This document shows, one piece after another, positions 230-19,486 of a stretch of DNA of 20,531 nucleotides. The translations under genes were made by a program, and so were the position numbers. The DNA is from Acidobacteriota bacterium (lineage in GTDB: Bacteria > Acidobacteriota > UBA6911 > JACQSX01): the NCBI GenBank assembly GCA_036507075.1, contig DASXQR010000175.1, forward strand, positions 1 through 20,531. The letters are read 5' to 3'. Each line of letters begins with the position of its first letter. Position 1 is the stretch's first letter. The notes under the pieces were generated by a model that saw only the letters and a program-made list of their open reading frames with translations, did no database searches and had not been told where the DNA came from.

Positions 230-372
230 CTTCCTTTCCCACTATCTCCTCCTTTCTTCCCCCTTCCTTCCCATTCATCCCCCCTTCATAACCCTTCCTC
301 CCCTTCATCCCACTTCATAACCCTTCATAACCTTTCATAGCCCTTGATAACCCTTTATCTCCCCTTCATAAC
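230..372. repeat. Degenerate ~10-bp tandem repeat (CCCTTCATAA), strongly pyrimidine-biased on the + strand
   Basis: Units such as cccttcataa, cacttcataa, cctttcatag, cccttgataa, ccctttatct follow one another; almost no G on the + strand. Confidence 0.75.
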
Positions 373-418
373 GCCGTGCGTGTTAAGATTCGATGAAATT
401 CTCCCTCGCCTTCTTGCT

Positions 419-3312: not shown

Positions 3313-3681
3313 TTACTTCACGTTCTCGGAGCTCTCAGCCGCTTTATTAATCACTCGCGTCGACATCATTTCCATCATGGCCATGCAACCCGACAGATGA
3401 CCTTTCATGTCATCCAGGTTGTTTTCCATTTTCGCCAGCGCCTCTTTCATCTTGGCAGCATCATTTGATTGTCTGGCCTGCTGCATCATCTTTCCCATTT
3501 CGTCGACGGAAGTCGAGGTTTTCTGGCAGTGTTTACGGCATTCCCGGTTCATTTCTGCCACCGACTTCAGCGTGTCGCCTGTGCCGGCCATGCGGGGCTG
3601 GGAGGATTGTCGGCAAGAGAGCGTGACGCCAAGTATTGCCAAACCGAGGCACATCATTGTGGGAAGCTTTTGTTTTTTCAT
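3313..3681 (-). CDS. Small Met-rich helical lipoprotein, putative periplasmic Cu(I)/Ag(I)-binding protein
   Basis: Basic N-terminus, hydrophobic core and lipobox-like TLS-C23. The mature part has 13 Met, CRKHC and HLSGCMAMMEMM. Confidence 0.7.
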   Translation of the reverse strand: MKKQKLPTMMCLGLAILGVTLSCRQSSQPRMAGTGDTLKSVAEMNRECRKHCQKTSTSVDEMGKMMQQARQSNDAAKMKEALAKMENNLDDMKGHLSGCMAMMEMMSTRVINKAAESSENVK

Positions 3682-5064: not shown

Positions 5065-7200
5065 TTAGTGCACAGTCATCTTACCGGGTCGAATACGGAT
5101 GAACAGATGGTAACTAATCGGATTGGAGTCGTATACGGCCTTCAATCCACGTGGAACGTGATAGGCGGTGATGTCGCCGCCGATTCCAAGCCGCATTTTG
5201 GGAGTGGCAATGATGTCGCGTACCCCACCCAACGTGAATGCTCCCACTCGAAAGAGCCGATCAAGTTGACCTGGACTGGCTGCCAACAAGCCGCGTCGAC
5301 CAAAAATGTTCTCCGCAAGCAGATCCTTCTTATCGACTAATTCCAGCCTGCCATAGGCGTAATTTTTGTCCTGAAAATTGACTGTCGACTCGAGCAAATA
5401 AGAATTGAAATTACCGCGCTCTTCATGGTTTCTACCCCAGATCAGCGTCGTCGCCCAGTGGCCTTCATCCCAATTTCGGGTGTGCGCGATAGAAGCCGTT
5501 AAACGGTCCAGATCACCCAGCTCAAACTTTTCGGGATTCTTCAGATGAGCGCCGGAGAACTGCATCGTCCACTCCCGGAAAGGTGTGAACCAGGCACGCG
5601 CGCTCCAGGAATCGAGCTTTCCAAGTTCAATATCCTTGCGATTCTCGTCCGGTTCGGCGCCGCGGAAAATCGAGCTCTCAAATTTCAAACGCCACGCCGT
5701 TACCCCGCCTGTCAGGACGCCATGCGCGATGTGGGTTGAGTCCTGAAGGTGATGGCCAAGCGGCGCTGCGGGATTCTCCATTGCCGAAGGGCGATGCATG
5801 AAAGCCACCGGTCCGATTGCGGGTTCCGCGACCGGACCACCGTAGAACTGGAAAGAGACGTTCTCTGATACGGGCAGCGTATAGCCGGCTGCCAGTTCCA
5901 TGAAGAGATCATGCGGATGCTGGGCATCGATGATGGGCCGGCCCTTATAGGTCTCGCCGGTCTGGAGCAGCTCGGGAAAACCGCCATTGGGCGTCGTCCG
6001 CGGTTCGGCTGAAAACATCCCTCGCAGCATCAGGCGCCCGCGCCCTGTTTTTCGTTCTGCCATGGCCATGATCCAGTTCTGGGACTCGGCCTTGTTTACA
6101 CCGCGCGGACCGCCCTGATGATTGAATCCGACCTTCAGATCACCGTGCAGCATCACCATCCAGCCATCTTTCATCCAATGCCGCATATAACCGGGAGTCG
6201 TCGCAGGCTGAAGACTGGTGCCTGAGCCGATAGCTTCCATGGCTTTGAAGGGGCCGCCCGTCTCTGTGGTCATCATTTCCGTCATCTCGTGAGCGCCCAT
6301 CTTGCCCATATCGTGCGGAGCCTGACCCGGCATCTTGCTCATATCGTGCGGAGCCTGACCCGGCTGCCCTGTTCCATGCTGCATCTGCCCGTGCTGCATT
6401 TCCCCGGCCTGTGGAGTGGCCTGAGAAGTCTGCGCGGAAGGAATCCCCCCATGTTGCATCTGACCATGTGACTGCGACGCAGTCGGCGCACCAGGGTTCT
6501 GCTCGCCGGCTGCTGGACGTGCCATTTCATGGCCTTGGTGTGCGCCGGCAGGCTGGCCCGACGGAGCGGCCCCGCTCGAGGGTTTTGAAGTCTCAGCCGC
6601 CGGATGCTGATGCACTGGCTGGCTTCCTTTTACAGTCTCCGCCTGCGGATGTTGATGCATCGGCTGCTTTGCTTTAGTCGTCTCTGCCTGGGGATGCTGA
6701 TGCGCCGGCTGGTTTTTCTGCAGCTTACCGTCTGGCACAGCCGGCGCAGATCTGTGCTGCTTATGCTGGGACGCAGCATCCGGGGCGGCCTTTTTTGAAA
6801 CCGCCTGGCCGTAGTGTGGGTGTGGGGGCGCTTTTTTGAACAATTTCAAAGCCGTCTCGCCCTGGTGCCTAGTTGAGCGCGGCTGGCGGCTGATCGGGCG
6901 CTTGCCCGCAGATTGACCGCCATGGTGATGAACGGTCGCCGTTTTGGAGATCCTAACCTTTGACACTTTGGCTTTTGGCTTTTTGCGGCTTCTTTTGCTT
7001 TGCTCGACCTTCTTCGTACCGTCGTGCCCTGTGTGAACCACATCGACGGCAGTCGCGGCGTGTGTGGGAATATCTGACATGCACAGCGCAGCAAGAAAGA
7101 GCCCAATGGAAAGCGCTGGTGCTAGCGCCTCTATGGGAAGGAGAGTTGGCTGAATTCCGCTTCCGTAATTGTTCCTAAATACGTAACGCATATATACCAT
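5065..7200 (-). CDS. Putative outer-membrane beta-barrel protein with a long His/Met-rich N-terminal region (heavy-metal associated)
   Basis: N-terminal hydrophobic segment; ~260 aa low-complexity K/H/Q/M/P region; C-terminal ~390-aa domain starting GSGTSLQPATTP with DAQHPHDLFMEL, FMHR, HHLQDSTHI and amphipathic beta-strands. The start codon is uncertain. Confidence 0.7.
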   Translation of the reverse strand: MVYMRYVFRNNYGSGIQPTLLPIEALAPALSIGLFLAALCMSDIPTHAATAVDVVHTGHDGTKKVEQSKRSRKKPKAKVSKVRISKTATVHHHGGQSAGKRPISRQPRSTRHQGETALKLFKKAPPHPHYGQAVSKKAAPDAASQHKQHRSAPAVPDGKLQKNQPAHQHPQAETTKAKQPMHQHPQAETVKGSQPVHQHPAAETSKPSSGAAPSGQPAGAHQGHEMARPAAGEQNPGAPTASQSHGQMQHGGIPSAQTSQATPQAGEMQHGQMQHGTGQPGQAPHDMSKMPGQAPHDMGKMGAHEMTEMMTTETGGPFKAMEAIGSGTSLQPATTPGYMRHWMKDGWMVMLHGDLKVGFNHQGGPRGVNKAESQNWIMAMAERKTGRGRLMLRGMFSAEPRTTPNGGFPELLQTGETYKGRPIIDAQHPHDLFMELAAGYTLPVSENVSFQFYGGPVAEPAIGPVAFMHRPSAMENPAAPLGHHLQDSTHIAHGVLTGGVTAWRLKFESSIFRGAEPDENRKDIELGKLDSWSARAWFTPFREWTMQFSGAHLKNPEKFELGDLDRLTASIAHTRNWDEGHWATTLIWGRNHEERGNFNSYLLESTVNFQDKNYAYGRLELVDKKDLLAENIFGRRGLLAASPGQLDRLFRVGAFTLGGVRDIIATPKMRLGIGGDITAYHVPRGLKAVYDSNPISYHLFIRIRPGKMTVH
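6298..6363 (-). repeat. Intragenic 33-bp tandem duplication encoding PGQAPHDM(S/G)KM twice
   Basis: 6298-6330 and 6331-6363 differ at one base. Confidence 0.9.
6577..6711 (-). repeat. Intragenic 45-bp x3 repeat encoding QPxHQHPxAET
   Basis: QPAHQHPQAETTKAK / QPMHQHPQAETVKGS / QPVHQHPAAETSKPS. Confidence 0.85.
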
Positions 7201-7278
7201 CCGGAGTTGCGTTTCCTAAATTTTCAGATGCTGAGTCTTAACGCTGAACGAGCGGGTACGCCGTCGCGAGAGGGAGGA

Positions 7279-7707
7279 TCAGATACGGAGCGAAAGCAAG
7301 GATGGAATTTCAGGAGTCCGGCTCGCACCCGGTGGCGAATGATCGTTCACATCGGGGAGTGTTCGGCATTGCTGTTCGGAAATGTTCCCAGCAGGCAGAG
7401 ACAAACCTTCAAATGACGTAGAGCAACCTGGCAGGGGCGATATTTTCGAAGCAGGACCGGCCAGGCCGCCATGGATAAAGTGCGTGCATGTCGGCTGATG
7501 TGAGGTCCGAACCGGTGTCCCGGCGCTGCGAGAATGGCAGGACTCGACCGACTTTTCCTGAGTTTCAGATGTGGTCTGGGAATCAGCTCCAAACGCTTGT
7601 CTGCACTGGAAAGGAAAAAGCGCAGCACATGTGTTTTCGCATTGGCCGATCGATAGTGAAACAAAACCAATGCTCCCTGCCAGGACCGCAACGAAAACCC
7701 GCTTCAT
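7279..7707 (-). CDS. Small Cys/His-rich protein with N-terminal hydrophobic segment, ending PP...LRI (copy 1; putative leader/arrest peptide)
   Basis: MKRVFVAVLAGSIGFVSLS, CENTC, SCH, CTH, C-terminal HSPP-x13-LRI*; ends 78 bp upstream of the His/Met-rich OMP gene. Confidence 0.75.
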   Translation of the reverse strand: MKRVFVAVLAGSIGFVSLSIGQCENTCAALFPFQCRQAFGADSQTTSETQEKSVESCHSRSAGTPVRTSHQPTCTHFIHGGLAGPASKISPLPGCSTSFEGLSLPAGNISEQQCRTLPDVNDHSPPGASRTPEIPSLLSLRI

Positions 7708-7722
7708 ACATGTAGGATACCA
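7708..7722 (-). promoter_or_regulatory. Extended -10 promoter, probable leaderless start
   Basis: TG-G-TATCCT (7722-7714), 6 nt, then ATG (7707). Confidence 0.5.
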
Positions 7723-7780
7723 TTGAAAGGTCAGATCCCTTCCACGTGGTTCCGAGACAGCCCACTACCGGACAGGTGCA

Positions 7781-9022
7781 TCATGGGAGGACGGTAATGG
7801 TGGCCGGAACGGGGATGAATGAGCCGCCGTGATCGTTTGCCTCACGATGGGCCCGCACGCCGGTGATTTTCCACGTTCCTGGCGCAGCGGACGCAGGTAT
7901 GGTGTGAGTTGCTGACGCCCCCTGCTGCCAGTTCTGGGCAATCTCGTCGGGCGTGGTTCCCAGCTTCCGAAAGCGGACATCAAAATATGTTTGTGCAGAA
8001 AGGTTCGCACCGGCGAACGTGGTCGTAAACATGTTCCCCAACCGCACGGTCGCTGGATCAAAAACGATGCTATTGACTGCCGGATCGGCAGTCGTGGGCA
8101 GGGGGGTGTTATCGGAAAGAAATGACCCGATGTTATCGCGGGCAGCGGGCCAAAAAAGCTGGTTACTCACACCGGGATAGCGGAAAGCACGAATTCGTGC
8201 CTGTGTCGATGGCAGCGTCAGGTACTTCTGGAGCGCAAAAGCGCCAGCGACGTTCACACCCGGAATTTTTTCCGGATTCACAAGGACAGTCATCATCATC
8301 CGCTGCAACACCGAGTCGTCCAGCACGAGCGCTTCCAGCTTTGAGGTGACGTTCTCCTTGAATTTGAGAAATGGAATAATGCCCCAGAGAACATAGGCCT
8401 CTGTTCTATCCGCAGCCTGAATTGCCGGCTGATCTCTCAATCCTGTATCGGTGTACCAGCCTGTCTGATCCGGCCGGCCGGCGGCTTCCCACAAAATCTG
8501 TGCGAGATACTTCTCGGTTGCTGCATTGTTCACGACAAATCGTGACTTGGTCTGAGCAATGCGGCGAAACGCTTCAACGGCATCAATCAGCCCCCGAATA
8601 CCTGCGCGATCCGATGAAGGTCCGATGATCACTGCTTGATTGGCAAACACAACGCGGGGCCAAAGCCCCAAGCCGTCCGACATGAAATCATCGACGCCGG
8701 CATGGCCGTAATGGGAAAGGACCAGGTCCGCTGCGCCCTGCCGTGCAAAGTTATACACCAGGTCTCCCTTTTGATCGACATCCACGCGATACCCTGTGGC
8801 TCTCTCAAAATCCGGCAACAGGTCCGTTAGAAGGCCGCTGTCTACGGGGACATTAACAACCTGCAGGCGAATCACCGTAGATTGGCCCCGTACGGTTGGA
8901 GACGCTGACAATACCAAGCCCGCGATAACCGCTAAGGGAGACAAGGCGGAGATCGCACATGCTGTCCAGGCTGAAAAACAATGGCGCCACATTGATTTAG
9001 AGAAGATATAAGAGTTGTTCAT
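7781..9022 (-). CDS. Divergent TupA-like (tungstate ABC-type) substrate-binding domain protein with a C-terminal Ig-like beta domain
   Basis: DSGLLTDLLPDFERATG..V, G.ADLVLSH, IIGPSSDRAGIRG..AVEAFRRIA, LVNPEKIPGVN resemble TupA. Signal peptide present; GGAGG SD (9035-9031) upstream of ATG 9022. Confidence 0.75.
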   Translation of the reverse strand: MNNSYIFSKSMWRHCFSAWTACAISALSPLAVIAGLVLSASPTVRGQSTVIRLQVVNVPVDSGLLTDLLPDFERATGYRVDVDQKGDLVYNFARQGAADLVLSHYGHAGVDDFMSDGLGLWPRVVFANQAVIIGPSSDRAGIRGLIDAVEAFRRIAQTKSRFVVNNAATEKYLAQILWEAAGRPDQTGWYTDTGLRDQPAIQAADRTEAYVLWGIIPFLKFKENVTSKLEALVLDDSVLQRMMMTVLVNPEKIPGVNVAGAFALQKYLTLPSTQARIRAFRYPGVSNQLFWPAARDNIGSFLSDNTPLPTTADPAVNSIVFDPATVRLGNMFTTTFAGANLSAQTYFDVRFRKLGTTPDEIAQNWQQGASATHTIPASAAPGTWKITGVRAHREANDHGGSFIPVPATITVLP

Positions 9023-9202
9023 TGGCTGGACCTCCGTGTTACTGCACAATTGGGATGGATTAACCCTAACATAACCTTCGCCCTTTCCACTCCCTCTCCT
9101 TTCGAATCGATGACGGGTCTCCGATGTTTAATGATCTGGAATGAAAAACGTTTCATCCATCACCATTCGAAAATGCCTCGCGCCCCTATTTCACCGGTCG
9201 CA

Positions 9203-9211
9203 TGTTATGAT
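9203..9211 (+). promoter_or_regulatory. Extended -10 promoter candidate for the 9231-11925 operon
   Basis: TG-T-TATGAT about 20 nt upstream of ATG 9231. Confidence 0.45.
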
Positions 9212-9230
9212 CACACTTGGATCAGGACTG

Positions 9231-9548
9231 ATGCCTAAAGCGCTGCCTTTCCTGTTGATGCTGATAGTCTTAATACCGACTACGATCGGCGCAGGCACCT
9301 GCCCGCAGCGTCAAGTTGCGCCGGATTGTGAGGAGGCGCCCGCGTGCTGCGCGCAAGATCGTTCGGTAGATGGTCACTGCGCCACCTGCTCGAGTTTGCT
9401 GGCACTCCCAGAACACAGAGACAGCACGCCCACCGTGACTTTCTTCGTAGCTGTCATAATCTTTCCAGTGGCGCTTAACGAAGTTCCTCCCCAGCTCTTT
9501 GGGGTATGGATGCCCCTTCCGCCCGACGCCCGAATTTTGCGGATTTAA
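9231..9548 (+). CDS. Small Cys-rich protein with N-terminal hydrophobic segment, ending PP...LRI (copy 2; putative leader/arrest peptide)
   Basis: MPKALPFLLMLIVLIPT, C, C, CC, HCATC, C-terminal PLPP-DARI-LRI*; ends 57 bp upstream of the thioredoxin gene. Confidence 0.7.
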   Translation: MPKALPFLLMLIVLIPTTIGAGTCPQRQVAPDCEEAPACCAQDRSVDGHCATCSSLLALPEHRDSTPTVTFFVAVIIFPVALNEVPPQLFGVWMPLPPDARILRI

Positions 9549-9605
9549 TAACCGTAGACCCCTCAAACAAGCTCCATTAACCATCGAACCGAACATGGGG
9601 AGTCT

Positions 9606-10211
9606 ATGTCTGTGCGTTGGAAGTTTTTGATGCTGTATCTTCCTTTGTCCATCGCTCTGTTACGGGCGGATGTAGCCACGCCTGATCTTGCGCTGCAGAA
9701 CGTTCACGGCGAGACGGAACGCCTGGCTGATTTTCGCGGGCGTATCGTCGTGTTGAACTTCTGGGCAACTTGGTGTAAGCCTTGCCAGAAAGAATTGCCT
9801 ATTCTGGTGGCATCGCACGCGAGCTATGCGCAGCGGGGAGTGGAGTTCATTGCGGCATCCCTTGATGATTCAGAAACGCGCAAGGACGTGCCCGATTTCG
9901 TGCAACGGTACCGGATTCCGTTTCGCGTGTGGGTTGGCGCAACACCCGAGCAGCAGGCAAAGCTCCACCTGGCCAAAGCTCTTCCTGCCACTGCGATTGT
10001 CGATCGTGACGGGACGGTTGCCTTTCGCATCATCGGTGAAGCTCGAAGCGAGGTCCTGACCGAGCGCCTGGAATGGCTTCTCTCCCAGCGAGAAGGCCTC
10101 CGCCCCTCGGAACTGGTGCTTCCACCGGGGATCACGCCCGAGCATTTTCGTGAACATGAGCTTGGCCTTGAGGACAAGCATGAAGAAGCGGAATCAGAGG
10201 TTCCGTCGTGA
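9606..10211 (+). CDS. TlpA/ResA-family thiol-disulfide reductase (possibly the N-terminal part of a selenoprotein extending to 10763)
   Basis: Signal peptide; VVLNFWATWCKPCQKELP active site; LPATAIVDRDG cis-Pro loop; GGGGAG SD; His/Glu-rich tail. Confidence 0.9.
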   Translation: MSVRWKFLMLYLPLSIALLRADVATPDLALQNVHGETERLADFRGRIVVLNFWATWCKPCQKELPILVASHASYAQRGVEFIAASLDDSETRKDVPDFVQRYRIPFRVWVGATPEQQAKLHLAKALPATAIVDRDGTVAFRIIGEARSEVLTERLEWLLSQREGLRPSELVLPPGITPEHFREHELGLEDKHEEAESEVPS

Positions 10212-10222
10212 CCGCTTTGACC

Positions 10223-10256
10223 CGGCGAAGGCCGTGCAGTCCGTGGGACTGCCGCG
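10223..10256 (+). promoter_or_regulatory. Candidate bacterial SECIS hairpins downstream of two in-frame TGA codons
   Basis: CGGC-GAAG-GCCG (10223-10234) begins 11 nt after TGA 10209-10211. GCAGTCC-GTG-GGACTGC (10236-10252) has its loop 22 nt after TGA 10218-10220. Both loops start with G. Confidence 0.55.
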
Positions 10257-10763
10257 ATGTCAGAACGATGGACACTGGGCGTGCGCATTCTGAGTCATCA
10301 GATTGATCGTGCCACGTGGCGAAATACTTTGACGTATCGAATCACGCGCCGGCTGCAAATCGGTGTCGAATACAACCCACTTGCTCCAGATGTGCGTTCC
10401 TTAGTCAACGCCCACTTGCTTACAGAAACGAAGAATCGTCCCGCATTGATCTTCGGAACAAGCTCCGATCGAATCGGGACACCGTCAGGGCAGTCTTTTT
10501 ATCTCACGCTCAGCAAGGACCTGCGCGACTGGACAGGTCTTCGCATTGCGCCCTACGCGGGCGTGGCATACGGGACCTTTGAGGATAGAGCTCGGCCGAT
10601 CGGAGGCATTAATCTCCGCTTCACCCGACGCACATCTGCCCTGGTTATCTTTGACGGGGTGCGCGTGCATCCAACGCTCAACTATCAGACCGGAAGACAC
10701 GTATTGTCGCTCGTTCTGGTGAAAGGCAAAGATCCGGGCGCGAGCTACAGCATTGCATTCTAA
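10257..10763 (+). CDS. Beta-barrel-like hypothetical protein/domain, in frame with the upstream thioredoxin
   Basis: Alternating amphipathic strands (TLTYRITRRLQIGVEYN, PYAGVAYG, GGINLRF, TLNYQTG), C-terminal YSIAF aromatic beta-signal, no signal peptide of its own. Confidence 0.75.
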   Translation: MSERWTLGVRILSHQIDRATWRNTLTYRITRRLQIGVEYNPLAPDVRSLVNAHLLTETKNRPALIFGTSSDRIGTPSGQSFYLTLSKDLRDWTGLRIAPYAGVAYGTFEDRARPIGGINLRFTRRTSALVIFDGVRVHPTLNYQTGRHVLSLVLVKGKDPGASYSIAF

Positions 10764-10771
10764 ACAGCGCT

Positions 10772-11410
10772 ATGGCAGTAGAGTGTGTTAAAACAGGGCA
10801 AACGACCTCATCCCGCACAATCGGTGTTCGGCGCGCCATGCATCTGGCGTCGTTTACCGTTGGTTACAACATTCTCGAGGGATTGGTTTCACTGGTCCTT
10901 GGACATCGCGCCAACTCTATTGCGCTGGTGGGCTTTGGGCTTGATAGCTTTGTCGAAAGCGCATCGGGCTTGATCGTCCTTTGGCGATTCGAGCAGGAAC
11001 GTCGCGGCGGCGATGCTGCATTTCTTGAGTCTCGCGCGCTGCGGTGGATTGGATATTCATTTTTTGTCCTGGCAGCATATGTCACCGCAGAAGGGACCCG
11101 GAAACTCTGGACTCACGACAGGCCTGAATCAACCGTAGGCGGCATCATTCTGGCGCTTGTGTCCTTGGTCGTCATGCCGGTACTCGCGTACAAGAAACGA
11201 CAGACTGGGAGGAGTCTTGAAAGCGTGTCACTTGTCAGTGACTCGAAGCAAACGATTGTGTGCTCACTGCTCTCTCTCACGCTCCTGACCGGATTGGCAC
11301 TCAATGCGTGGCTGGGATGGTGGTGGTGCGACCCTGTCGCCGGGATTTGCATGGTCCCGTGGCTGATCCGAGAGGGCCGAGCGGCGCTCAGCGCCAGGCG
11401 GTGCTGTTAA
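10772..11410 (+). CDS. Cation efflux (CDF-like, transmembrane-domain-only) transporter
   Basis: About 6 TM helices; YNILEG, SIALVGFGLDSFVE, SLVSDSKQT..C, WWWCDPVAG; ends RRCC. Confidence 0.85.
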   Translation: MAVECVKTGQTTSSRTIGVRRAMHLASFTVGYNILEGLVSLVLGHRANSIALVGFGLDSFVESASGLIVLWRFEQERRGGDAAFLESRALRWIGYSFFVLAAYVTAEGTRKLWTHDRPESTVGGIILALVSLVVMPVLAYKKRQTGRSLESVSLVSDSKQTIVCSLLSLTLLTGLALNAWLGWWWCDPVAGICMVPWLIREGRAALSARRCC

Positions 11411-11472
11411 GAGTGGGAGAAATTCGGAAAGCTCAGCCACGGCGCGCTACCGTTAACACTTAGCGAATCACC

Positions 11473-11925
11473 GTGAAAACGACAGTTCTGTTTTTTGCGT
11501 TTCTATTTTTCACCGGGTTTATTTTGAACCTGCTCTGGGAAATGACCCACATGCGCGCTTATGCAGAAATGGCCGGCCGCCCGTGGATTGAAACGTTGCC
11601 GAGATGCACCCTGGCAAGCCTGGGTGACGCAGTTACGACGCTCGGCATCTTCGTCTTTTATGCATTGCTGAGACGGCGCCTTCCTTTAAGCCATCAACTG
11701 AAGAGCATTGATTATCTCTGGTTAGCGCTGCTGGCAATTATTTGGGCGGTAGGTTTCGAGCATTTTGCCCTCTTTACGGGGCGCTGGTCGTACAACCCTC
11801 AGATGCCCGTGATACCGGGCCTCGGAGTGGGGCTTTGGCCGCTCCTTCAGTTGACCCTGTTAGTCCCTCTCTCGGCGTACCTCTCTAAGCTATTCCTCCG
11901 TGCACGACTGCGTGCACGACAGTGA
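11473..11925 (+). CDS. Hypothetical 4-TM membrane protein
   Basis: Four hydrophobic segments; NLLWEMTH, ASLGD, E..AL.TGRWSY...MP, GLWPLLQ; GTG start. Confidence 0.75.
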   Translation: MKTTVLFFAFLFFTGFILNLLWEMTHMRAYAEMAGRPWIETLPRCTLASLGDAVTTLGIFVFYALLRRRLPLSHQLKSIDYLWLALLAIIWAVGFEHFALFTGRWSYNPQMPVIPGLGVGLWPLLQLTLLVPLSAYLSKLFLRARLRARQ

Positions 11926-11997
11926 CAGGCTTGGTTTTACGCGTGGCGATCGCCGAACAGGATGCACATTTTTGATCCGATTCCTGCTCCGCCCAAC

Positions 11998-12026
11998 TTG
12001 ACATTTGTTCCCTCTACCTTTACAGT
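11998..12026 (+). promoter_or_regulatory. Sigma70-type promoter for the LRI-copy-3/cusCBA unit
   Basis: TTGACA (11998-12003), 17 nt, TACAGT (12021-12026). Confidence 0.65.
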
Positions 12027-12091
12027 TCAAAATGAACTTTTGCAACGAAAGGGCTTGCCCGTTCGTCCTATTGACGGACTGGAACTAAAAC

Positions 12092-12499
12092 GTGAACCCA
12101 CTGAGCACTCGAAACCTAGGCCGCGGGCGTTTGATTCTGGGACTGGTGTGCCTCGTTTTCACGGCGGTGGTTTTCGGGCCGGTTCTAGGACTGGTGTGCG
12201 GTTATGGCTCTGATTTGGATCCGAAGAGCTGTTGCAACAGTGGCGCGTGCGCGGGATCTCGTTCTTTCTCCAAAACGCCCGCCGAATGCTGCAAGCAATC
12301 CGAACAGGCAAAGCCGCAAATAGGCATTCACGCCAGTGCTCAGGAATTAAAGACCAGTCTTCAGATCGCCTGGGTCCCTGTTTCCTTTAACCGCTGGAGC
12401 GACGAAGTCAAGTTCGACGTTGCCAGTAACTGGTTTCTCTGCAAGTCGGAATCCCCTCCCGAAACACTCTACGAGATTACTTCTAATCTCCGGATCTGA
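12092..12499 (+). CDS. Small Cys-rich protein with N-terminal hydrophobic segment, ending PP...LRI (copy 3; putative leader/arrest peptide)
   Basis: RLILGLVCLVFTAVVFGPVLGLVC, SCC, ECC, C-terminal SESPP-x9-LRI*; first gene upstream of the cusCBA-like genes. Confidence 0.75.
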   Translation: MNPLSTRNLGRGRLILGLVCLVFTAVVFGPVLGLVCGYGSDLDPKSCCNSGACAGSRSFSKTPAECCKQSEQAKPQIGIHASAQELKTSLQIAWVPVSFNRWSDEVKFDVASNWFLCKSESPPETLYEITSNLRI

Positions 12500-12601
12500 T
12501 CCCTAAAGAGTCTACGTGTGCCGGGCTGCCGGACCTGAAGAGCCCCAGGGCTGCGTAAAAACGGCCGCCCTCATCTGGCAGCGGAACGCACGTTTGCCAT
12601 C

Positions 12602-12788
12602 CATCAGAGCCCGAACGCAGTGAGGAGCCCTCGTACAGAGCCCGAACGCAGTGAGGGGCCCTCGCACAAAGCCCGAACGCGGGACCTTCACAGGAACGAT
12701 CACCGTTGCGCGAATCCGACAAACCGGGAGGGCCGCTCGCTTCGTTCGCGCTCTCGGGAGGGCCGCTCACTTCGTTCGCGCTCTGATG
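12602..12788. repeat. Composite REP/BIME-like element: 2.5 x 31-bp direct units facing 2 x 30-bp inverted units
   Basis: CAGAGCCCGAACGCAGTGAGG(A/G)GCCCTCG(T/C)A at 12605 and 12636, partial at 12667; CGGGAGGGCCGCTC(G/A)CTTCGTTCGCGCTCT at 12725 and 12755; outer ends CATCAGAGC / GCTCTGATG are complementary. Confidence 0.85.
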
Positions 12789-12824
12789 ACGTTAATGTAC
12801 ACATTGGAAATTTTTGGTGACGTA

Positions 12825-14189
12825 ATGATCCATCTGGTGCTTAGAACCATTTTCGTACTTTGTTTGATCTTTCTCAGCGGAATTAGTCCCTGTCTCTCCG
12901 GCACCGAGCAAGAGCGGCTGACTCCCCAGCCGGCTGTGCCCGAATTTCCACATGTGATTCCAATCCCGCCGGCACAACGGGAACAGGAATCGGCCAATGT
13001 CCGCATCGTGACGCTCGATGAGCTGATCGCTGAGGCTCTAGAAAATAATCCCGAGATTGCGGCCGCTCGCAGGCGGTTTGAGGCTGCGACAAAAAGACCC
13101 GGCACCGCCGCCGCCCTGCCCGACCCGACGATCAGCCTGGCTAACTTCGGCGTGGGGCATCCCTTTTCAAGGCCGAACGGCAGCGAATTCGCCTACTACG
13201 GTCTGGGCTTTTCGCAGGAAATACCTTTCCCCGGAAAACTTTCGCTTCGCAAGCAGATCGCGCAAAAGGAGGCGGAAAGCGAACGCCAGATGTTCCGCGA
13301 CGTCGGACTGCGCCTGATTTCAAGCGTCAAACGGGCCTATTACGATCTCTTCCAGGCTTACAAAACGCTGGAGATCCTTGAGAAGAACCGGGACTTTCTG
13401 GAAAAGATCGCCAAGATTACCGAGGCGAAATATCGGGTCGGATCGGGCATTCAACAAGATCTGGTCAAAGCGCAGCTCGAGATCTCTCTGCTGGCGCAGC
13501 GAATCGAAGTGGCCGAGCAGCAGCGTGCCAGCCAGGAAGCCTCGATTCTTGCTTTGCTCCGACGCCCGCTCGATTCAACAGCCACTCGCATAAAGCCCGC
13601 CGAGACCAAACGATCCGAGCTCACCTACAGCGTCGAGCGACTTTTCGAGCTGGCGCGGGAAAACTCTCCACGACTGCGCAGCCGGCGCGAATTGGTGGAG
13701 AGCAAAAACTTCGCGGTGGATCTGGCAAAGAAAGATTACCTGCCGGACTTCAACGCCACCTTCCAGTACCAGAAGACCGGCTCTCACTTTCCCGATTACT
13801 ACATGACGATGGTTGAGGTGAAAGTCCCTCTTTATTTCTGGCGCAAGCAGCGGCTCGGAGTGGAAGAAGCGGCCGCGACACTGGCTCAGTCGCGAAACGA
13901 ATATCAGGCTGAAACACAGGGGTTGTTTTTCGGGATCAAGGACCAATTCCTGCTGGCCAAGACGTCCGAGCGGCTGCTGGCTCTCTACGAGCAAGCCGTC
14001 ATTCCACAGGCCACAACCGGCGTGGAATCGGCGCTCGCAGCTTACGAGAGCGGGAAGGTCGATTTTCTGAATGTTATGAACAGTCTCACCGGAATTCTCA
14101 ATTACGAAATGGACTATTACAAGCAACTGACGGATCAAAAGAAATCGCTGGCGAAGCTGGAGGAATTAGTGGGAGTGCCGCTTACGTGA
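12825..14189 (+). CDS. TolC-family outer-membrane efflux protein (CusC/CzcC-like)
   Basis: Signal peptide from ATG 12825; TLDELIAEALENNPEI, ALPDP, QEIPFPGKL, AYESGKVDFL; directly upstream of the MFP and RND genes. The longer GTG start at 12651 lies in the REP element. Confidence 0.9.
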   Translation: MIHLVLRTIFVLCLIFLSGISPCLSGTEQERLTPQPAVPEFPHVIPIPPAQREQESANVRIVTLDELIAEALENNPEIAAARRRFEAATKRPGTAAALPDPTISLANFGVGHPFSRPNGSEFAYYGLGFSQEIPFPGKLSLRKQIAQKEAESERQMFRDVGLRLISSVKRAYYDLFQAYKTLEILEKNRDFLEKIAKITEAKYRVGSGIQQDLVKAQLEISLLAQRIEVAEQQRASQEASILALLRRPLDSTATRIKPAETKRSELTYSVERLFELARENSPRLRSRRELVESKNFAVDLAKKDYLPDFNATFQYQKTGSHFPDYYMTMVEVKVPLYFWRKQRLGVEEAAATLAQSRNEYQAETQGLFFGIKDQFLLAKTSERLLALYEQAVIPQATTGVESALAAYESGKVDFLNVMNSLTGILNYEMDYYKQLTDQKKSLAKLEELVGVPLT

Positions 14190-14262
14190 CCAGTTGTTAC
14201 AGTCAGGTTGATAGTAGCTGCGCGTGTAACAAGCAGACGCTTGATGTGGCAGTGCTGCGCAC

Positions 14263-14367
14263 TATCCGAACCGCGCGCGTAAGCAAGCGGACTCTGCAGC
14301 TGACACTGCTCATACAGCAAAAAGTGCCACATCGAGAGTCCGCTTGCTTACGCGCGCGGTTCGGATA
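14263..14367. repeat. REPIN-like element with perfect 33-bp inverted arms
   Basis: TATCCGAACCGCGCGCGTAAGCAAGCGGACTCT (14263-14295) and its exact reverse complement (14335-14367), 39-nt spacer. Confidence 0.9.
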
Positions 14368-14400
14368 ACGTGCAGACCAAACAGAACTGAGGAGATTTTC

Positions 14401-16182
14401 ATGAATGACGTAAACGATACGAACGGCCCGGAACAGGTCGAGCCAAGCCTTCCGGAAAATCCCCCTCCCCCCGCAAGGCATGGCTATCGGAAATGGATTC
14501 TTCTGGCTGGCGCCGTGCTGCTTACTGGAATTGTTATCGCCGGGGCGTTATGGAATTTCTCACCGGCTTCTCAACAAAAAGCCGAAGCGGAAAAGGCGCC
14601 GGCCAGGGACATCTACTACTGCCCCATGCACACCAACTACAAATCCGACAAGCCGGGCAATTGTCCAATCTGCAGCATGAAACTGGTAAAGCTGGAAGGC
14701 CCGGCCACCGAACAACAGAACGCAGCAGGATCGGCGCCCGCCGGCTCTTCTCCCACAGCCGCTATCAGTGGAGCTCCAGGTTCGACGGATTCAATGCCGT
14801 CACAGTCAGGCGGCGGAGCTGCGGGGCCAGACCGGATCTTCATCGCCCCTGAACAGCAGCAGTTGATCGGCGTCCGGACGGAAGCGGCCGGCGTCATGCC
14901 GCTGACCCGGGAAATACGGGCGGCGGGCAAAGTGACCATTAATGAGAAGCAGATTGCCCACATTCACACCAAAGTCTCCGGTTTCATCGAGGATGTATTT
15001 GTAAATTTCGTAGGCCAGCAGGTCAAAAGAGGAGATCCGCTCTTCACGATTTACAGCCCTGATCTGGTTTCAACGCAGGAAGAGTACCTAATCGCACTTC
15101 GCAGTCGAGGAACACTTAAGGAGAGCTCATTTAACTGGGTCTCAAACGCCTCTCAGGACCTTGTCGATGCCGCGCGGCAACGGTTGAGACTTTGGGACGT
15201 CACGCCTGAAGAGATTAGAAGCCTGGAACGTGAAGGCAAGGTAAAGCGGGCCTTGACGATTTATTCTCCGGTGAGCGGAACTGTTACCGAACGCGAGGCC
15301 TTCCATCACGGCAGGGCCGTCACACCGGAAACGGACCTTTATACCATCGTCGATCTTTCCACCGTCTGGATCGTCGGTGACGTGTACCAGTACGAACTGC
15401 CCTTCGTCAAGGTCGGCCAAACCGCCCAGATTGAGCTTCCTTACACTCCTGAAGAGCGCCCGCTTACCGGAAGAATCACCTACATCTCCCCGTTTGCCGA
15501 CCCTAAAACCAGGACGGTGCAGGTTCGAACCGAGCTTTCCAACCCGGGCCTGGGCTTGAAAACCGACATGTTCGTCAATTTCAAGTTGAACATCGATCTT
15601 GGCCGGTGGCTGGTGGTTCCACAGGACGCCGTGCTGGATACCGGAATCGAGCATTACGTCTTTGTCGATGAGGGCGACGGGTATTTCCGGCCTGTACCGG
15701 TCAAACTCGGGCCGCGTTCGGAGAACTACTTTGCCGTTGAACGCGGGCTCAAGTCAGGAGACCGCGTGGTGACGGCGGCAAATTTCATTCTGGATTCCGA
15801 AAGCAGACTGAAAGGCGCCTTTGCCAACATGGGAAGGCCTTCAGAACGAGAGATCAAGCGAGCGCCCACGCCGGCCAGTAATCTGAGGATTGAAGTCCTG
15901 GAACCAAGAACCGCCAAGGTTGGCCAGAACCCGGTGCGCATCAGCGTCAAAGATCCGTCGGGAAAACCGATCACGGATGCCGAAGTAAGCATCAATCTGT
16001 TCATGCCGCAGATGGGGAGCATGCCCCCGATGAGCTCCGATGCAAAGCTGAGCCATACCGGGAACGGCGTGTACGAAGGGAAGATCGAATTCCAGATGGC
16101 CTGGACGTGGCAGACCACAATCACGGTTCGACGAGGCGGCCAGCAGATTGGGTCGATGAGGACCAACATTACAGCTCAGTAG
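14401..16182 (+). CDS. cusB: CusB-like RND periplasmic adaptor with an N-terminal heavy-metal-binding domain and a C-terminal YtkA/FixH-like domain
   Basis: GAGGAG SD; TM anchor; YYCPMH..PGNCPICSMKL; VKRGDPLFTIYSPDLVSTQEEY; ANFILDSESRL; C-terminal FMPQMGSMPPM..GVYEG..W. Confidence 0.9.
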   Translation: MNDVNDTNGPEQVEPSLPENPPPPARHGYRKWILLAGAVLLTGIVIAGALWNFSPASQQKAEAEKAPARDIYYCPMHTNYKSDKPGNCPICSMKLVKLEGPATEQQNAAGSAPAGSSPTAAISGAPGSTDSMPSQSGGGAAGPDRIFIAPEQQQLIGVRTEAAGVMPLTREIRAAGKVTINEKQIAHIHTKVSGFIEDVFVNFVGQQVKRGDPLFTIYSPDLVSTQEEYLIALRSRGTLKESSFNWVSNASQDLVDAARQRLRLWDVTPEEIRSLEREGKVKRALTIYSPVSGTVTEREAFHHGRAVTPETDLYTIVDLSTVWIVGDVYQYELPFVKVGQTAQIELPYTPEERPLTGRITYISPFADPKTRTVQVRTELSNPGLGLKTDMFVNFKLNIDLGRWLVVPQDAVLDTGIEHYVFVDEGDGYFRPVPVKLGPRSENYFAVERGLKSGDRVVTAANFILDSESRLKGAFANMGRPSEREIKRAPTPASNLRIEVLEPRTAKVGQNPVRISVKDPSGKPITDAEVSINLFMPQMGSMPPMSSDAKLSHTGNGVYEGKIEFQMAWTWQTTITVRRGGQQIGSMRTNITAQ

Positions 16183-16201
16183 CGAGCGTGAGTCACCCAC
16201 G

Positions 16202-19200
16202 ATGATCAACAGGATAATCGAATATTCAGCGACCCACCGGGTGCTGGTTCTTACGGTAGTAACGGGACTGGTGCTTATCGGCATCTGGTCGATGAAGAAC
16301 GTGCCGCTGGACGCGATACCCGATCTGTCGGATCCCCAGGTGATCATCTACACGGAATGGCCGGGACGAAGTCCCAACATCGTCGAAGACCAGATTACGT
16401 ACCCGATTGTCTCTTCCATGCTGGCCGCGCCTCATGTCAGCGTCGTTCGCGGGATCTCCGATTATGGCTTCTCGTACGTGTACGTCATCTTTGACGAGGG
16501 CACGGATATTTACTGGGGTCGAAGCCGGGTGCTCGAGTACATGAGCAAGATCTCCGGCAAACTTCCTGAAGGCGTTACTCCTACTCTCGGACCTGATGCT
16601 ACGGGCGTCGGCTGGGCTTTCCAATACGCATTGATAGATAAGAGCGGACGCCACAATATTGCGCAACTCCGATCCTTCAACGATTGGTACATGCGTTATT
16701 GGCTGGAAAGCGTCCCGGGTGTAGCCGAGGTTGCCACCGTCGGCGGGTTCGTAAAACAGTATCAGGTCAATGTCGATCCCAACCTATTGGTCTCCTACAA
16801 CATCCCGCTACCAAGGCTGATGGAAGTAATTCGAGGGAGCAACAGCGAGGTCGGCGGACGCGTTGTGGAAATGACAGGCAAGGAATATGTCGTCCGTGGC
16901 CGTGGTTATCTGACCTCCCAGGCCGATATCGAAAATCTGACAGTGGGGATGGACACAGGGGGAACTCCTGTTTATGTGAAGAATGTGGCGCGCGTCGAGC
17001 TCGGGCCGGAGATGAGGCGAGGGATTGCCGATTACAACGGGCAGGGCGAAGTCACGGGCGGAATCGTGGTGGTTCGATTCGGTCAAAACGTAATGGACGT
17101 CATCGAGCGGGTCAAAGCCAAACTTCAGGAAGTTCAGCCGTCACTGCCCCCGGGAGTCAAAGTAGCCGTTACCTACGATCGCTCGGATCTGATCCGGCGT
17201 TCGATTGAAACGCTGAGGCATACGTTGATTGAGGAACTGATCATCGTGAGCGCTGTAATCCTTATTTTTCTCTGGCACATTCCAAGCGCCATCATACCGA
17301 TTCTAACCATCCCCATTGCCGTGATCCTTTCCTTTGCGCCCATGTACACCACAGGACTGACATCCAACATCATGTCTCTCGGGGGGATCGCGATCGCGAT
17401 AGGCGCGATGGTCGACGCGGCCATTGTGGTGGTCGAACAAACTCACAAAAAGCTTGAACAATGGGAAGCCCAGGGGCGCCCAGGTAGCTCAGAGCGGGTC
17501 GTCATAAATGCCGTCAAGGAGGTGGGAGGTCCCAGCTTCTTTTCGCTTCTGGTCATCGCAGTCTCTTTCATGCCCATCTTTGCGCTGCAGTATCAGGAGG
17601 GCCGGCTGTTCAAGCCGCTGGCATTTACCAAGAACTTCTCCATGGCGATTGCCGCAGTTCTGGCGATCACGCTGGATCCGGCCCTGCGGTTGCTGCTGAT
17701 GAAGACCGAGGATTTCAAATTCAAACCACGATGGCTGGCCCGGGCGGCCAACGGCCTGTTTGTCGGGAAGATTCACAGTGAAGAGAAACATCCGATCAGT
17801 CGCCCGCTGATGCGGATTTACCACCCGGTAGTGCGTTTTGTCCTGAACTTCAAGTGGCTCGTTATTTCTCTGGCCATAGTCCTTGTGCTGGTAACAATCC
17901 CGGTATTTCTCTCGCTTGGATCCGAGTTCATGCCACCGTTGAATGAAGGGACGATCCTGTACATGCCCATCACGCTGCCGGGAATTTCCGCTACCGAAGC
18001 GCGAAAGTATCTCCAGATACAGGACAAGCTGATCAAGCAATTTCCTGAAGTGGATAGCGTCTTTGGAAAGATCGGAAAGGCCGAAACCTCCACCGATCCA
18101 GCGCCTCTGAGTATGGTCGAGACCACCGTGGTCCTGAAACCGGAGAACCAGTGGAGGACGGTTCACACGGACCGCTGGTATTCACGCTGCTCTCCCGAGT
18201 TCCTGAAGAAAGGGTTGAGACGAATCTGGCCGGAAGACGCAGCGATCGAGTGGCAGGACCTGACCGATGAGATGGATCGAGCGGTGCAGATACCGTCCTT
18301 TGCCAATGCGTGGCTTTTCCCCATTCGCACCCGAATCGACATGATCACAACAGGAGTACGGACCCCTGTCGGAGTGAAGGTTCTGGGACCCAATCTCGAC
18401 ACTATCCAGAGGATAGGCCTGGATGTGGAAAAAGTGATACAGGGCGTGCCCGGTACACGCAGCGCCTTCTTCGAAAGGGTGACGGGCGGTTACTACATTG
18501 ACTTTCAGGTGCGGCGTGAAGAAGCTGCACGCTATGGACTGAATGTCAACGATGTAAACGACATCGTCGAATCAGCCATCGGCGGCAAGACGCTCACCAC
18601 TACTATTGAAGGCAGAGAACGTTACCCGGTAAACGTCCGATATGCGCGAGGCCTCCGAAATGATCTGGGCACCCTCGGTCGCGTGTTGGTCCCCACATCT
18701 TCGGGAGCGCAGATTCCACTGGCGCAACTGGCCGACATCACCGTGCGTCCAGGCCCTCCGATGATTAAAAACGAGGAAGGTTTTCTGGCAGGGTTTGTCT
18801 ACGTCGATGTGTCCGGGCGCGACATGGGAAGTTATGTGGAAGAGGCCAAGCGCATCGTCGCCGATAAAGTTCACTTGCCGGCCGGCTATCACTTGGTCTG
18901 GAGCGGACAATATGAGTATCTGCAACGGGTCAAAGAGCGTTTGTGGGTGGTGGTTCCGATTACCCTTTTCATTGTTTTCCTGCTGCTGTTCTTCAACACC
19001 GGCTCGCTCACAAAAACCATGATCATCCTGCTGGCGGTCCCGTTTTCGGCCATCGGCGCCATCTGGCTCTTGTGGTTCCTGAACTACAACATGAGCATCG
19101 CCGTCTGGGTCGGATTAATTGCGCTGCTGGGTGTCGATGCCGAGACGGCCGTCTTCATGCTCCTGTACCTGGACCTGGCCTATGAAGAGAGGAAAGCTCA

Positions 19201-19486
19201 AGGCCGCATGCGCTCGATGAAGGACCTGAAGGCCGCCATCGAAGACGGAGCCGTCAAGCGTCTGCGGCCCAAGGTGATGACCGTTGGAGTGATGTTTATG
19301 GGCCTGCTGCCGATCATGTGGTCTGCCGGCGCGGGATCAGACGTAATGCGCCGCATCGCGGCGCCTATGATCGGCGGGATCTTCACTTCGTTTCTTTTGG
19401 AACTGCTGGTGTACCCGGCTATTTACGAACTCTGGAAAGGTCGCGAGGTGAAGCGGCTGGCAACAGCCGAAAATCAACCCGCGTAG
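16202..19486 (+). CDS. cusA: CusA-family Cu(I)/Ag(I) RND efflux transporter
   Basis: PLDAIPDLSDPQVII, GAMVDAAIVVVE, KRLRPKVMT; the three CusA metal-site Met contexts LYMP, PAPLSM and RIDM are all present. Confidence 0.95.
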   Translation: MINRIIEYSATHRVLVLTVVTGLVLIGIWSMKNVPLDAIPDLSDPQVIIYTEWPGRSPNIVEDQITYPIVSSMLAAPHVSVVRGISDYGFSYVYVIFDEGTDIYWGRSRVLEYMSKISGKLPEGVTPTLGPDATGVGWAFQYALIDKSGRHNIAQLRSFNDWYMRYWLESVPGVAEVATVGGFVKQYQVNVDPNLLVSYNIPLPRLMEVIRGSNSEVGGRVVEMTGKEYVVRGRGYLTSQADIENLTVGMDTGGTPVYVKNVARVELGPEMRRGIADYNGQGEVTGGIVVVRFGQNVMDVIERVKAKLQEVQPSLPPGVKVAVTYDRSDLIRRSIETLRHTLIEELIIVSAVILIFLWHIPSAIIPILTIPIAVILSFAPMYTTGLTSNIMSLGGIAIAIGAMVDAAIVVVEQTHKKLEQWEAQGRPGSSERVVINAVKEVGGPSFFSLLVIAVSFMPIFALQYQEGRLFKPLAFTKNFSMAIAAVLAITLDPALRLLLMKTEDFKFKPRWLARAANGLFVGKIHSEEKHPISRPLMRIYHPVVRFVLNFKWLVISLAIVLVLVTIPVFLSLGSEFMPPLNEGTILYMPITLPGISATEARKYLQIQDKLIKQFPEVDSVFGKIGKAETSTDPAPLSMVETTVVLKPENQWRTVHTDRWYSRCSPEFLKKGLRRIWPEDAAIEWQDLTDEMDRAVQIPSFANAWLFPIRTRIDMITTGVRTPVGVKVLGPNLDTIQRIGLDVEKVIQGVPGTRSAFFERVTGGYYIDFQVRREEAARYGLNVNDVNDIVESAIGGKTLTTTIEGRERYPVNVRYARGLRNDLGTLGRVLVPTSSGAQIPLAQLADITVRPGPPMIKNEEGFLAGFVYVDVSGRDMGSYVEEAKRIVADKVHLPAGYHLVWSGQYEYLQRVKERLWVVVPITLFIVFLLLFFNTGSLTKTMIILLAVPFSAIGAIWLLWFLNYNMSIAVWVGLIALLGVDAETAVFMLLYLDLAYEERKAQGRMRSMKDLKAAIEDGAVKRLRPKVMTVGVMFMGLLPIMWSAGAGSDVMRRIAAPMIGGIFTSFLLELLVYPAIYELWKGREVKRLATAENQPA

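Follow-up and report, generated by a model that had tools for sequence, protein, structure and literature searches.

In a stretch of 20,531 nucleotides from an Acidobacteriota bacterium (assembly GCA_036507075.1, contig DASXQR010000175.1; this whole stretch is called the window) three small open reading frames, ORF1, ORF2 and ORF3, each precede a different unit, namely the gene of a putative outer-membrane protein (OMP), an operon starting with a TlpA-like thioredoxin gene, and cusCBA (Table 1). An earlier note on this DNA had described them as Cys-rich small proteins which share their design and their last three residues, LRI, and had suggested a metal-sensing leader system. All three ORFs and their LRI-stop ends are directly seen in the sequence, and the common design of a hydrophobic N-terminus, a Cys cluster and a late PP is indeed present despite little sequence likeness, as BLAST found no similarity between ORF1 and ORF3 and an E value of 1.4 between ORF2 and ORF3, the two pairs compared. 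Judged from the sequences, they are likely a variant of the CutF/CruR-type leaders, real and beyond chance, with putative stalling and metal binding. Very probably they are cis-acting leaders of some kind, and we see about an even chance that they are export-coupled co-translational copper sensors in which, according to RNA modelling, a ribosome at the terminal motif and the stop codon opens the next ribosome-binding site (RBS). The broader statement is the safer one because a pause at PP and a control by Rho, both discussed below, fit much of the same evidence.

A family of putative leaders upstream of metal genes

The N-termini of ORF1, ORF2 and ORF3 reach best 12-residue Kyte-Doolittle means of 2.4, 3.1 and 2.9, respectively, and each protein carries six to eight Cys. 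Their PP ends 16 residues ahead of the C-terminus in ORF1, 12 residues in ORF3 and, being present at two places, 7 and 18 residues in ORF2. The last CC of ORF3 is 68 residues and the HCxxC of ORF2 52 residues from the end, and the gaps to the downstream genes are 78–87 nt (ORF1), 57 nt (ORF2) and 325 nt (ORF3). An in-frame ATG upstream at 9141 is a possible alternative start of ORF2, and AGGA at 9224–9227 precedes the ATG used here. Pfam and NCBIfam scans gave no match for the three ORFs and 50 family members, and a globular fold is absent from the AlphaFold model of ORF3 (pTM 0.30, shallow alignment). Inspection by eye showed no canonical lipobox, which makes it unlikely that the Cys following the hydrophobic segment belongs to a lipoprotein. 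An RNA run containing 5% of the words gave scattered contigs, mostly from relatives, with zero or near-zero depth over the leaders, and is uninformative on expression.

Within the genome, LRI ends 13 of 20,706 ORFs of 70–260 amino acids (aa). A broadened filter (PP, hydrophobic end, Cys and hydrophobic N-terminus) is passed by four genome ORFs, three of them being the window leaders and the fourth, on contig C53, resembling a chance frame. When a profile of 47 relatives, made without the three window ORFs, was searched against 38,873 genome ORFs, ORF3 ranked first (E 1.6e-10) and ORF1 second; ORF2 is the weakest family member as it ranked only 14th (E 1.7). Chance or spurious ORFs would agree with the missing Pfam and NCBIfam matches and with the weak score of ORF2, but we regard this explanation as hardly credible in view of the genome filter and the leave-out ranks as well as the strand contrast, the ending, the family size and the alignment to HYC_CC_PP described below, and for ORF1 and ORF3 it is refuted.

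As anchors for the genomic context we used 121 cusC and 39 OMP matches, of which 96 and 27 were left after removing the window's own loci, duplicates and loci with less than 800 nt upstream; both sets still include close kin. Whole-genome searches of 401 genomes from the phylum found OMP homologues in 71; an OMP-domain scan of the genome collection gave no match. With a leader defined by a hydrophobic N-terminus, at least three Cys and a hydrophobic-R/L-I/V/L end within 1.2 kb upstream, 64 of 96 cusC genes and 11 of 27 OMP homologues have one, compared with one in each set on the opposite strand. Thus, the enrichment upstream of metal genes foreseen in the earlier note is present, and the profile search with a table of downstream genes proposed there points the same way. 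A search from the leader side, with a profile trained mainly on the leaders of cusC and OMP genes, gave matches in 34 of 301 phylum genomes. Among 29 loci, 28 with a next gene, this gene encodes a TolC-type protein (12), YtkA (7), an RND pump (2) or the OMP (4), making 25 of 28, the other three belonging to an unknown 285-aa family. The leaders L280, L282 and L283 were seen ahead of a secreted protein of 283–285 aa without Pfam match. Among the relatives of the second unit, L254 shows the same leader–tlpA and leader–OMP layout, L269 has the leader one gene further up and L258 has a PP-terminal leader. One locus (L221) in the context, ending, RNA, leave-out profile and spacing counts and one genome in the OMP and selA counts belong to the unpublished genome G159, on which none of the conclusions depends.

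To look at the ending, upstream ORFs were chosen by their hydrophobic N-terminus and Cys only, which gave ORFs at 83 of 123 anchors and 56 after de-replication. Among these 56, position -3 is L in 40 and F in 7, position -2 is L in 25 and R in 22, and position -1 is I in 35, V in 7 and L in 5. The family ending is (L/F)(L/R)(I/V)-stop and LRI is a minority form of it; the identity of the last three residues therefore holds for the three window ORFs and not as a family motif, since among the top 150 profile matches LLI ends 90, LRI 20 and FLI 18. The 44 leaders fitting the ending use all three stop codons (16, 16 and 12), and its R and L are kept also via AGA and TTG codons. That the L(L/R)I ending is solely a by-product of anti-Shine-Dalgarno codons with a pyrimidine bias at wobble positions was ruled out, because AGA and TTG codons occur, all stops are used and loci without a Shine-Dalgarno sequence (SD) keep the ending.

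A search with the 50-member profile found 1,848 clusters at 50% identity, and the mean column identity of the family alignment is 14%. The 12 proteins from a word-indexed homologue search are unnamed or hypothetical save one labelled lipoprotein. In the Atlas, ORF3 is surrounded by unnamed Acidobacteriota clusters with DUF8199 as the nearest named neighbour, and for ORF1 DUF6769 appears besides DUF8199, with DUF2946 and DUF6660 ranking lower. One family member (P0037) has a weak match below the cut-off (E 0.002) to the model of the putative copper homeostasis lipoprotein LpqS.

Regarding the metal, EFMP, PLSMVET and RIDM, three Met motifs of the window's CusA-type pump, are missing from one Czc-type relative. 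We take these motifs to be a Cu(I)/Ag(I) site and the mark of a Cu/Ag-type pump. The titles of the closest CusA relatives are mostly from Acidobacteriota. From 20 fetched upstream regions of Czc-type operons 16 could be judged, and the L(L/R)I ending is absent from all 16. Instead, 12 of them have a His/Cys leader ending at most five residues from PP, with the last Cys 42–46 residues from the end in 10 of the 12, one leader ends VPRF, one VLRA and two regions are without leader; this contrast of leader type between Cus and Czc operons was counted without correction for kinship. The family is thus likely copper-specific, and its following of Cu/Ag-type systems argues against three different metals in the window, so that the different metal units of the earlier note are not supported. 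The His/Cys motifs and (H/R/E)PP(R/K)x ends of the Czc-type leaders (L309–L327; also L036 and L040) mark a second leader class heading Zn/Co-type operons in the phylum.

The leader stop codon and the next ribosome-binding site

Around the leader stop the RNA is rich in pyrimidines (fraction 0.69–0.71 vs 0.46–0.47 in 333 control genes), at wobble positions too, and poor in G, with a C minus G skew of +0.22 to +0.25 compared with -0.02 to -0.06 in the controls. With a ribosome footprint forced open and the A site placed over the stop codon, we modelled what it costs to open the downstream RBS; this covered the 41 leaders out of 44 that have an assignable downstream start. A ribosome at the stop brings this cost to 8.7 kcal/mol, compared with 10.2 without it (41 leaders: 19 better, 4 worse, p 6e-4). 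The gain is 0.8 four codons before the stop and nil 12 or 16 codons before, while control gene pairs (70 of 88 tested) gain 0.1 kcal/mol (10 better, 8 worse). The tract from -12 to +12 at the leader end is predicted to pair with its own RBS at -11.5 vs -9.8 for those of others (permutation p<5e-5), whereas the zone of the PP shows no such preference (p 0.62). In 22 of 25 further loci the gain was 2.8 kcal/mol (11 better, 1 worse, p 8e-4) and the pairing with the own RBS was seen again. The earlier note had considered a stall either at PP or at LRI-stop; the modelling favours the terminal motif with the stop over PP.

For ORF2 the predicted helix that starts 5 nt past the stop holds 12 pairs (duplex -16.7 kcal/mol) and is part of the minimum free energy structure. 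A ribosome at the stop would reduce the opening cost from 10.9 to 7.8–8.1, or from 11.0 to 9.6 with another folding range. For ORF3 it would fall from 4.9 to 2.7–3.4, with the arms predicted to pair lying on both sides of a REP-like array (12596–12788) of three direct and two inverted units of 30–31 nt with a long self-stem, pieces of which repeat on eight contigs. A stretch similar to GTGTG(T/C)C follows the stop in 14 of 44 leaders vs 35 of 333 controls, often on the 5' arm of a hairpin (for example L156, L177 and L084; 12516–12521 in the window).

From this we suggest the following model. The N-terminal hydrophobic segment would bring the nascent chain into Sec, and when the last codons are reached the last CC, about 66 residues from the peptidyl-transferase centre, would place the Cys cluster just past the translocon. 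Binding of Cu(I)/Ag(I), or the disulfide folding which it blocks, may then remove a pulling force or otherwise lengthen the pause, the direction proposed for CutF, while PP...(L/Y)...(L/F)(L/R)I in the exit tunnel would slow termination with the stop codon in the A site. As predicted from folding and comparative pairing, the paused ribosome would cover the pyrimidine-rich anti-SD tract so that the first gene of the unit is translated, and the released leader peptide would be a by-product. An arm of 66 residues fits the range for a periplasmic pull on a nascent chain, as about 50 residues span ribosome and translocon and folding of periplasmic LepB pulls at about 70 (bioRxiv 2021.02.06.430026). 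Export and metal binding are what we infer from the signal-like segment, the Cys and the neighbouring genes.

The spacing within the family can be read in two ways. From the last CC to the end the median is 67 residues in 32 context-picked leaders, and the interquartile range is 65–68 in the top 150 profile matches. Among 44 context-picked members 37, and among the top 150 profile members 140, have a PP in their last 26 residues, and the median distance from CC to PP is 54–55 residues, slightly above the approximately 50 needed to reach the periplasm. Without copper, a regulated pause could stall the ribosome at PP, 10–16 codons before the stop, with the helix shut, and copper-induced folding would free the chain, so that coupling opens the helix and the terminal tripeptide serves as a degradation tag or for slow release. 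The RNA data would allow this as they require only that the ribosome reaches the stop, and PP is where stalling was tested in CruR (PMC12992588) and CutF. On the other hand R[AG]PP occurs in 1 of the top 150, and a plain PP is normally rescued by EF-P. Moreover, PP is missing from some members and lies at a distance of 3 to 21 from the stop, in contrast to the fixed terminal tripeptide, and it is the Czc-type leaders truly ending in PP which show the 42–46 spacing of CutF and CruR. We consider a pause at PP rather unlikely for these reasons.

A second alternative starts from the C-rich, G-poor tract at the stop, which could be a loading site for Rho that is covered by the stalled ribosome, as in CruR and TnaC, so that a copper-dependent pause lets RNA polymerase into the unit. 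The C minus G skew and the Rho gene present in the genome agree with this, several intergenic gaps are long (325 nt after ORF3) and it could also account for ORF1 and for the Bacteroidota members without SD. Rho sites are unstructured, but the tract is short (about 60–75 nt, fading after +15) and in two sets pairs specifically with its own RBS, and we find Rho control as the main mechanism improbable, although it can coexist with RBS opening. Quite improbable, too, is that the released proteins act as periplasmic or membrane-anchored copper buffers or chaperones with the C-terminal tripeptide as a PDZ-type ligand for a protease or partner. The signal-like N-terminus and the six to eight Cys would suit such a role, and hydrophobic-x-hydrophobic-COOH suits class II PDZ ligands and substrates of tail-specific proteases. 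CutF was at first interpreted as a chaperone (PMC8456105). Against it stand the missing fold (pTM 0.30), a length that is conserved at 14% mean column identity, a place ahead of the other genes of the unit, the presence of three unrelated copies within one island and the pairing with the next RBS that is centred on the stop.

Several points weigh against the copper-gated pause at the stop codon that we prefer. The leader test is not passed upstream of 32 of 96 cusC and 16 of 27 OMP homologues, and most homologues of the second unit are without such a leader directly upstream. The statistics of the top 150 profile matches are partly circular, and the metal is deduced from neighbouring genes only. 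The distance from CC to PP (about 54) is as tight as that from CC to the end, without significant compensation between the two among the context-picked leaders (rho -0.12 to -0.31), so that spacing does not choose between PP and stop. For the RNA, 22 of 41 and 11 of 22 loci improve by no more than 1 kcal/mol, kinship and GC content inflate the outcome of the permutation tests, and the folding values, equilibrium predictions on related genomes, shift with the folding range chosen. ORF1 itself shows no gain at the stop (9.2 to 9.0–9.4, and worse values with the alternative start) and gains somewhat at positions further upstream.

Relation to CutF, CruR and HYC_CC_PP

The earlier note had proposed a class related or analogous to the DUF2946-type leaders CruR and CutF. 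What stands of it are Cys-rich leaders tied to metal genes, a constrained length from Cys to the end and a modelled coupling of stop and RBS; no match to DUF2946 (PF11162) itself was found in the three ORFs, in 50 aligned members or anywhere in the genome. With CruR from Bordetella pertussis, a DUF2946 protein, they share the upstream ORF, the export signal, a Cys motif at fixed distance from a C-terminal motif and the C-rich tract (PMC9426467, PMC12992588). CruR differs in that its CxxC and RAPP are 45 residues apart, compared with 54–55 from CC to PP and 66–67 from CC to the end in the window family, and in that PP is its stall site, copper switches it off through Rho and the gene that follows encodes an importer (PMC9426467, PMC12992588). 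Its RAPP end is missing from the three window ORFs. Elsewhere in the genome four small ORFs with hydrophobic N-termini end in RAPP (C10:45766–46119(+), C146:62723–63046(+), C143:10724–11128(-) and C197:3435–3824(-)), which the DUF2946 model does not match. The ORF on C10 is followed by a secreted protein of 466 aa and that on C146 by one of 488 aa, which by eye resembles the N-terminus of a TonB receptor.

CutF from Rhodobacter capsulatus is also a small exported ORF with a Cys cluster and a late PP that heads a copper unit and is followed by an SD-hiding helix, and its mechanism is described as copper-induced stalling with release of the SD (PMC9973294; bioRxiv 2025.02.05.636593). It ends in PPPRL with 45 residues from C73 to residue 118 (PMC8456105), whereas the window family has about 66, a fixed (L/F)(L/R)I-stop and a PP that lies about 12 residues earlier and is sometimes missing. 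The catalogue of CutF-like proteins holds 5,334 entries, with CusC/TolC as the commonest neighbour and 40% (normalised) from Bacteroidota (PMC9973294). Some members of the window superfamily are probably in this list, given its size and the frequent CusC-type neighbours of its entries. From its rules, fewer than 150 aa and a same-strand neighbour within 1,000 nt apply to all three ORFs, and a PP in the last 15 residues to ORF2 and ORF3 and not to ORF1 (PMC9973294). 'Acidobacter' does not occur in the main text of that paper, and it is by the rules and the text of the catalogue that the window family is set apart from it.

A distant relative is HYC_CC_PP (NF047658), whose model aligns end to end with the leader profile (hhalign probability 97.7, E 1.7e-12 over 113 columns), a probability that the low-complexity design may inflate. 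Both have a signal, C, CC, a linker, PP, LY and an FRI-type end, but the HYC motif is lacking in the three ORFs, and neither these nor the 50 members match NF047658 at its 28-bit cut-off, while the positive controls L334 and L338 do. In a sample of 23 loci from 81 genomes, obtained by a Bacteroidota-centred search, 22 have their CC 68–78 residues from the end; hydrophobic-R/L-I/L is the ending of 12, and others end in FRC, FRN, FYS or FYA. The leader profile scores at least 20 bits on 15 of the 23, scores which the low complexity may raise as well. Their next genes mostly have A-rich starts without SD. By sequence, the window ORFs are distant relatives of HYC_CC_PP and not members of it. DUF8199 and HYC_CC_PP are presumably the same family.

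Stop-dependent arrest peptides are known with NSP-stop, NAP-stop and DGMK-stop (PMC10987492). They have in common with our model the stop codon in the A site and an arrest set by the last residues, and differ as they head secA/secDF or sense tryptophan, have other motifs and lack a metal site; the main text of that paper contains neither LRI nor LLI. In the literature searched, which covered few subscription journals, there was no paper on the (L/F)(L/R)I-stop ending, on HYC_CC_PP or on DUF8199. Tentatively, and rated somewhat below an even chance, the Acidobacteriota clusters and the HYC_CC_PP proteins of Bacteroidota may form one phylum-spanning superfamily of periplasmic copper sensors gating termination, in which the arrest would be set by (L/F)(L/R)I and any stop codon with no proline motif, and the arm would be about 20 residues longer than in CutF and CruR. 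One phylum would then use two leader grammars, this one for Cu/Ag and the PP-terminal one with 45 residues for Zn/Co-type efflux.

Neighbouring genes and a selenoprotein candidate

Table 1. Positions of the leaders, the units they precede and predicted RNA elements in the window.
Feature	Position	Strand	Description
Gene after ORF1, 711-aa putative OMP	5065..7200	-	start 7200 or 7191
ORF1, 142-aa leader	7279..7707	-	hydrophobic N-terminus, Cys/His cluster with CxxxC, PP, LRI-TGA
ORF2, 105-aa leader	9231..9548	+	hydrophobic N-terminus, C, CC, HCxxC, PP, LRI-TAA
ORF2 hairpin (predicted)	9553..9608	+	9553-9565, 5 nt past stop, pairs with 9596-9608, which holds SD and AUG of the tlpA-like gene
TlpA-like thioredoxin and 168-aa ORF	9606..10763	+	in frame across TGA-CCG-CTT-TGA 10209-10220
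Short CDF-family membrane protein, unit 2	10772..11410	+	PF01545, E 3e-12
150-aa membrane protein, unit 2	11473..11925	+	no family match
Sigma-70-like promoter candidate before ORF3	11998..12026	+	TTGACA, 17 nt, TACAGT
ORF3, 135-aa leader	12092..12499	+	hydrophobic helix 10-32, C, CC, C, CC, PP, LRI-TGA
ORF3-cusC intergenic region	12500..12824	+	about 12500-12521 predicted to pair with about 12797-12820; cusC SD GGTGA 12816-12820
cusCBA after ORF3	12825..19486	+	TolC-type outer-membrane factor, CusB-type adaptor, CusA-type RND pump

The 711-aa OMP is secreted, with a His/Met-rich N-terminus and a conserved C-terminal domain, and had no Pfam, NCBIfam or PDB sequence match. In the cus unit the CusB-type adaptor carries HMBD and YtkA domains, and the second unit is made up of the TlpA-like gene, the 168-aa ORF, the short CDF protein and the membrane protein. 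In line with the earlier note, which saw no CueR, CsoR or CusRS regulator in the window, none of its 16 proteins scanned in NCBIfam and Pfam matched a regulator family. Genome-wide there is no match to CsoR, the three MerR-family genes are all on other contigs, and CusRS was not searched at this scale. An own promoter for each leader could not be confirmed, as the scan found one site in the window, before ORF3, vs 2.4 in shuffled sequences, which is not above chance, and the extended -10-like sites upstream of ORF1 and ORF2 are seen by eye only. Also by eye, a palindrome (AGTTCA, 3 nt, TGAACT; 12024–12038) is seen overlapping the promoter candidate of ORF3 at its end. A two-Cys ORF of 18 codons (12032–12088, +) starts at this place, is in frame with ORF3 and ends 3 nt before it. 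A search of Rfam over 6900–13000 gave one chance-level match only. Further genes of the window encode a tungstate-binding-like solute-binding protein between the first two leaders (7781–9049, -; weak TupA match, about 110 extra aa at the C-terminus), a secreted, Met/Cys-rich helical protein of 122 aa without family (3313–3681, -) and a membrane PDZ-GAF-SpoIIE phosphatase (344–3268, +).

As their sequences suggest, the TlpA-like ORF and the 168-aa ORF likely encode a single Sec-x-x-Sec selenoprotein. The two TGA codons (10209–10211 and 10218–10220) enclose Pro-Leu, are followed by PGEG and the 168-aa ORF, and are both kept in 30 of 30 loci including that of the window. A SECIS-like hairpin is located at about 10236–10252, and in most of the 30 loci a conserved hairpin starts 14–15 nt after the second TGA. 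The gene selA is present in this genome and in 29 of 29 carriers tested vs 119 of 151 genomes of a phylum sample. The read-through product has no NCBIfam match over its 168-aa part, and a Cys-containing homologue was not found among the 30 loci.

That exported Cys-rich upstream ORFs control copper genes has been known since 2022–2023 (PMC9973294). The terminal motif of the window family is invisible to searches based on RAPP/RGPP or PP. If true, the mechanism proposed here would provide HYC_CC_PP and no fewer than 1,848 unannotated clusters with a function that can be tested, and would explain how the island could be induced without an adjacent copper regulator. It would also extend the arrest peptides, among which the metal sensors tested so far stall at prolines, by a metal-gated pause at the stop codon.

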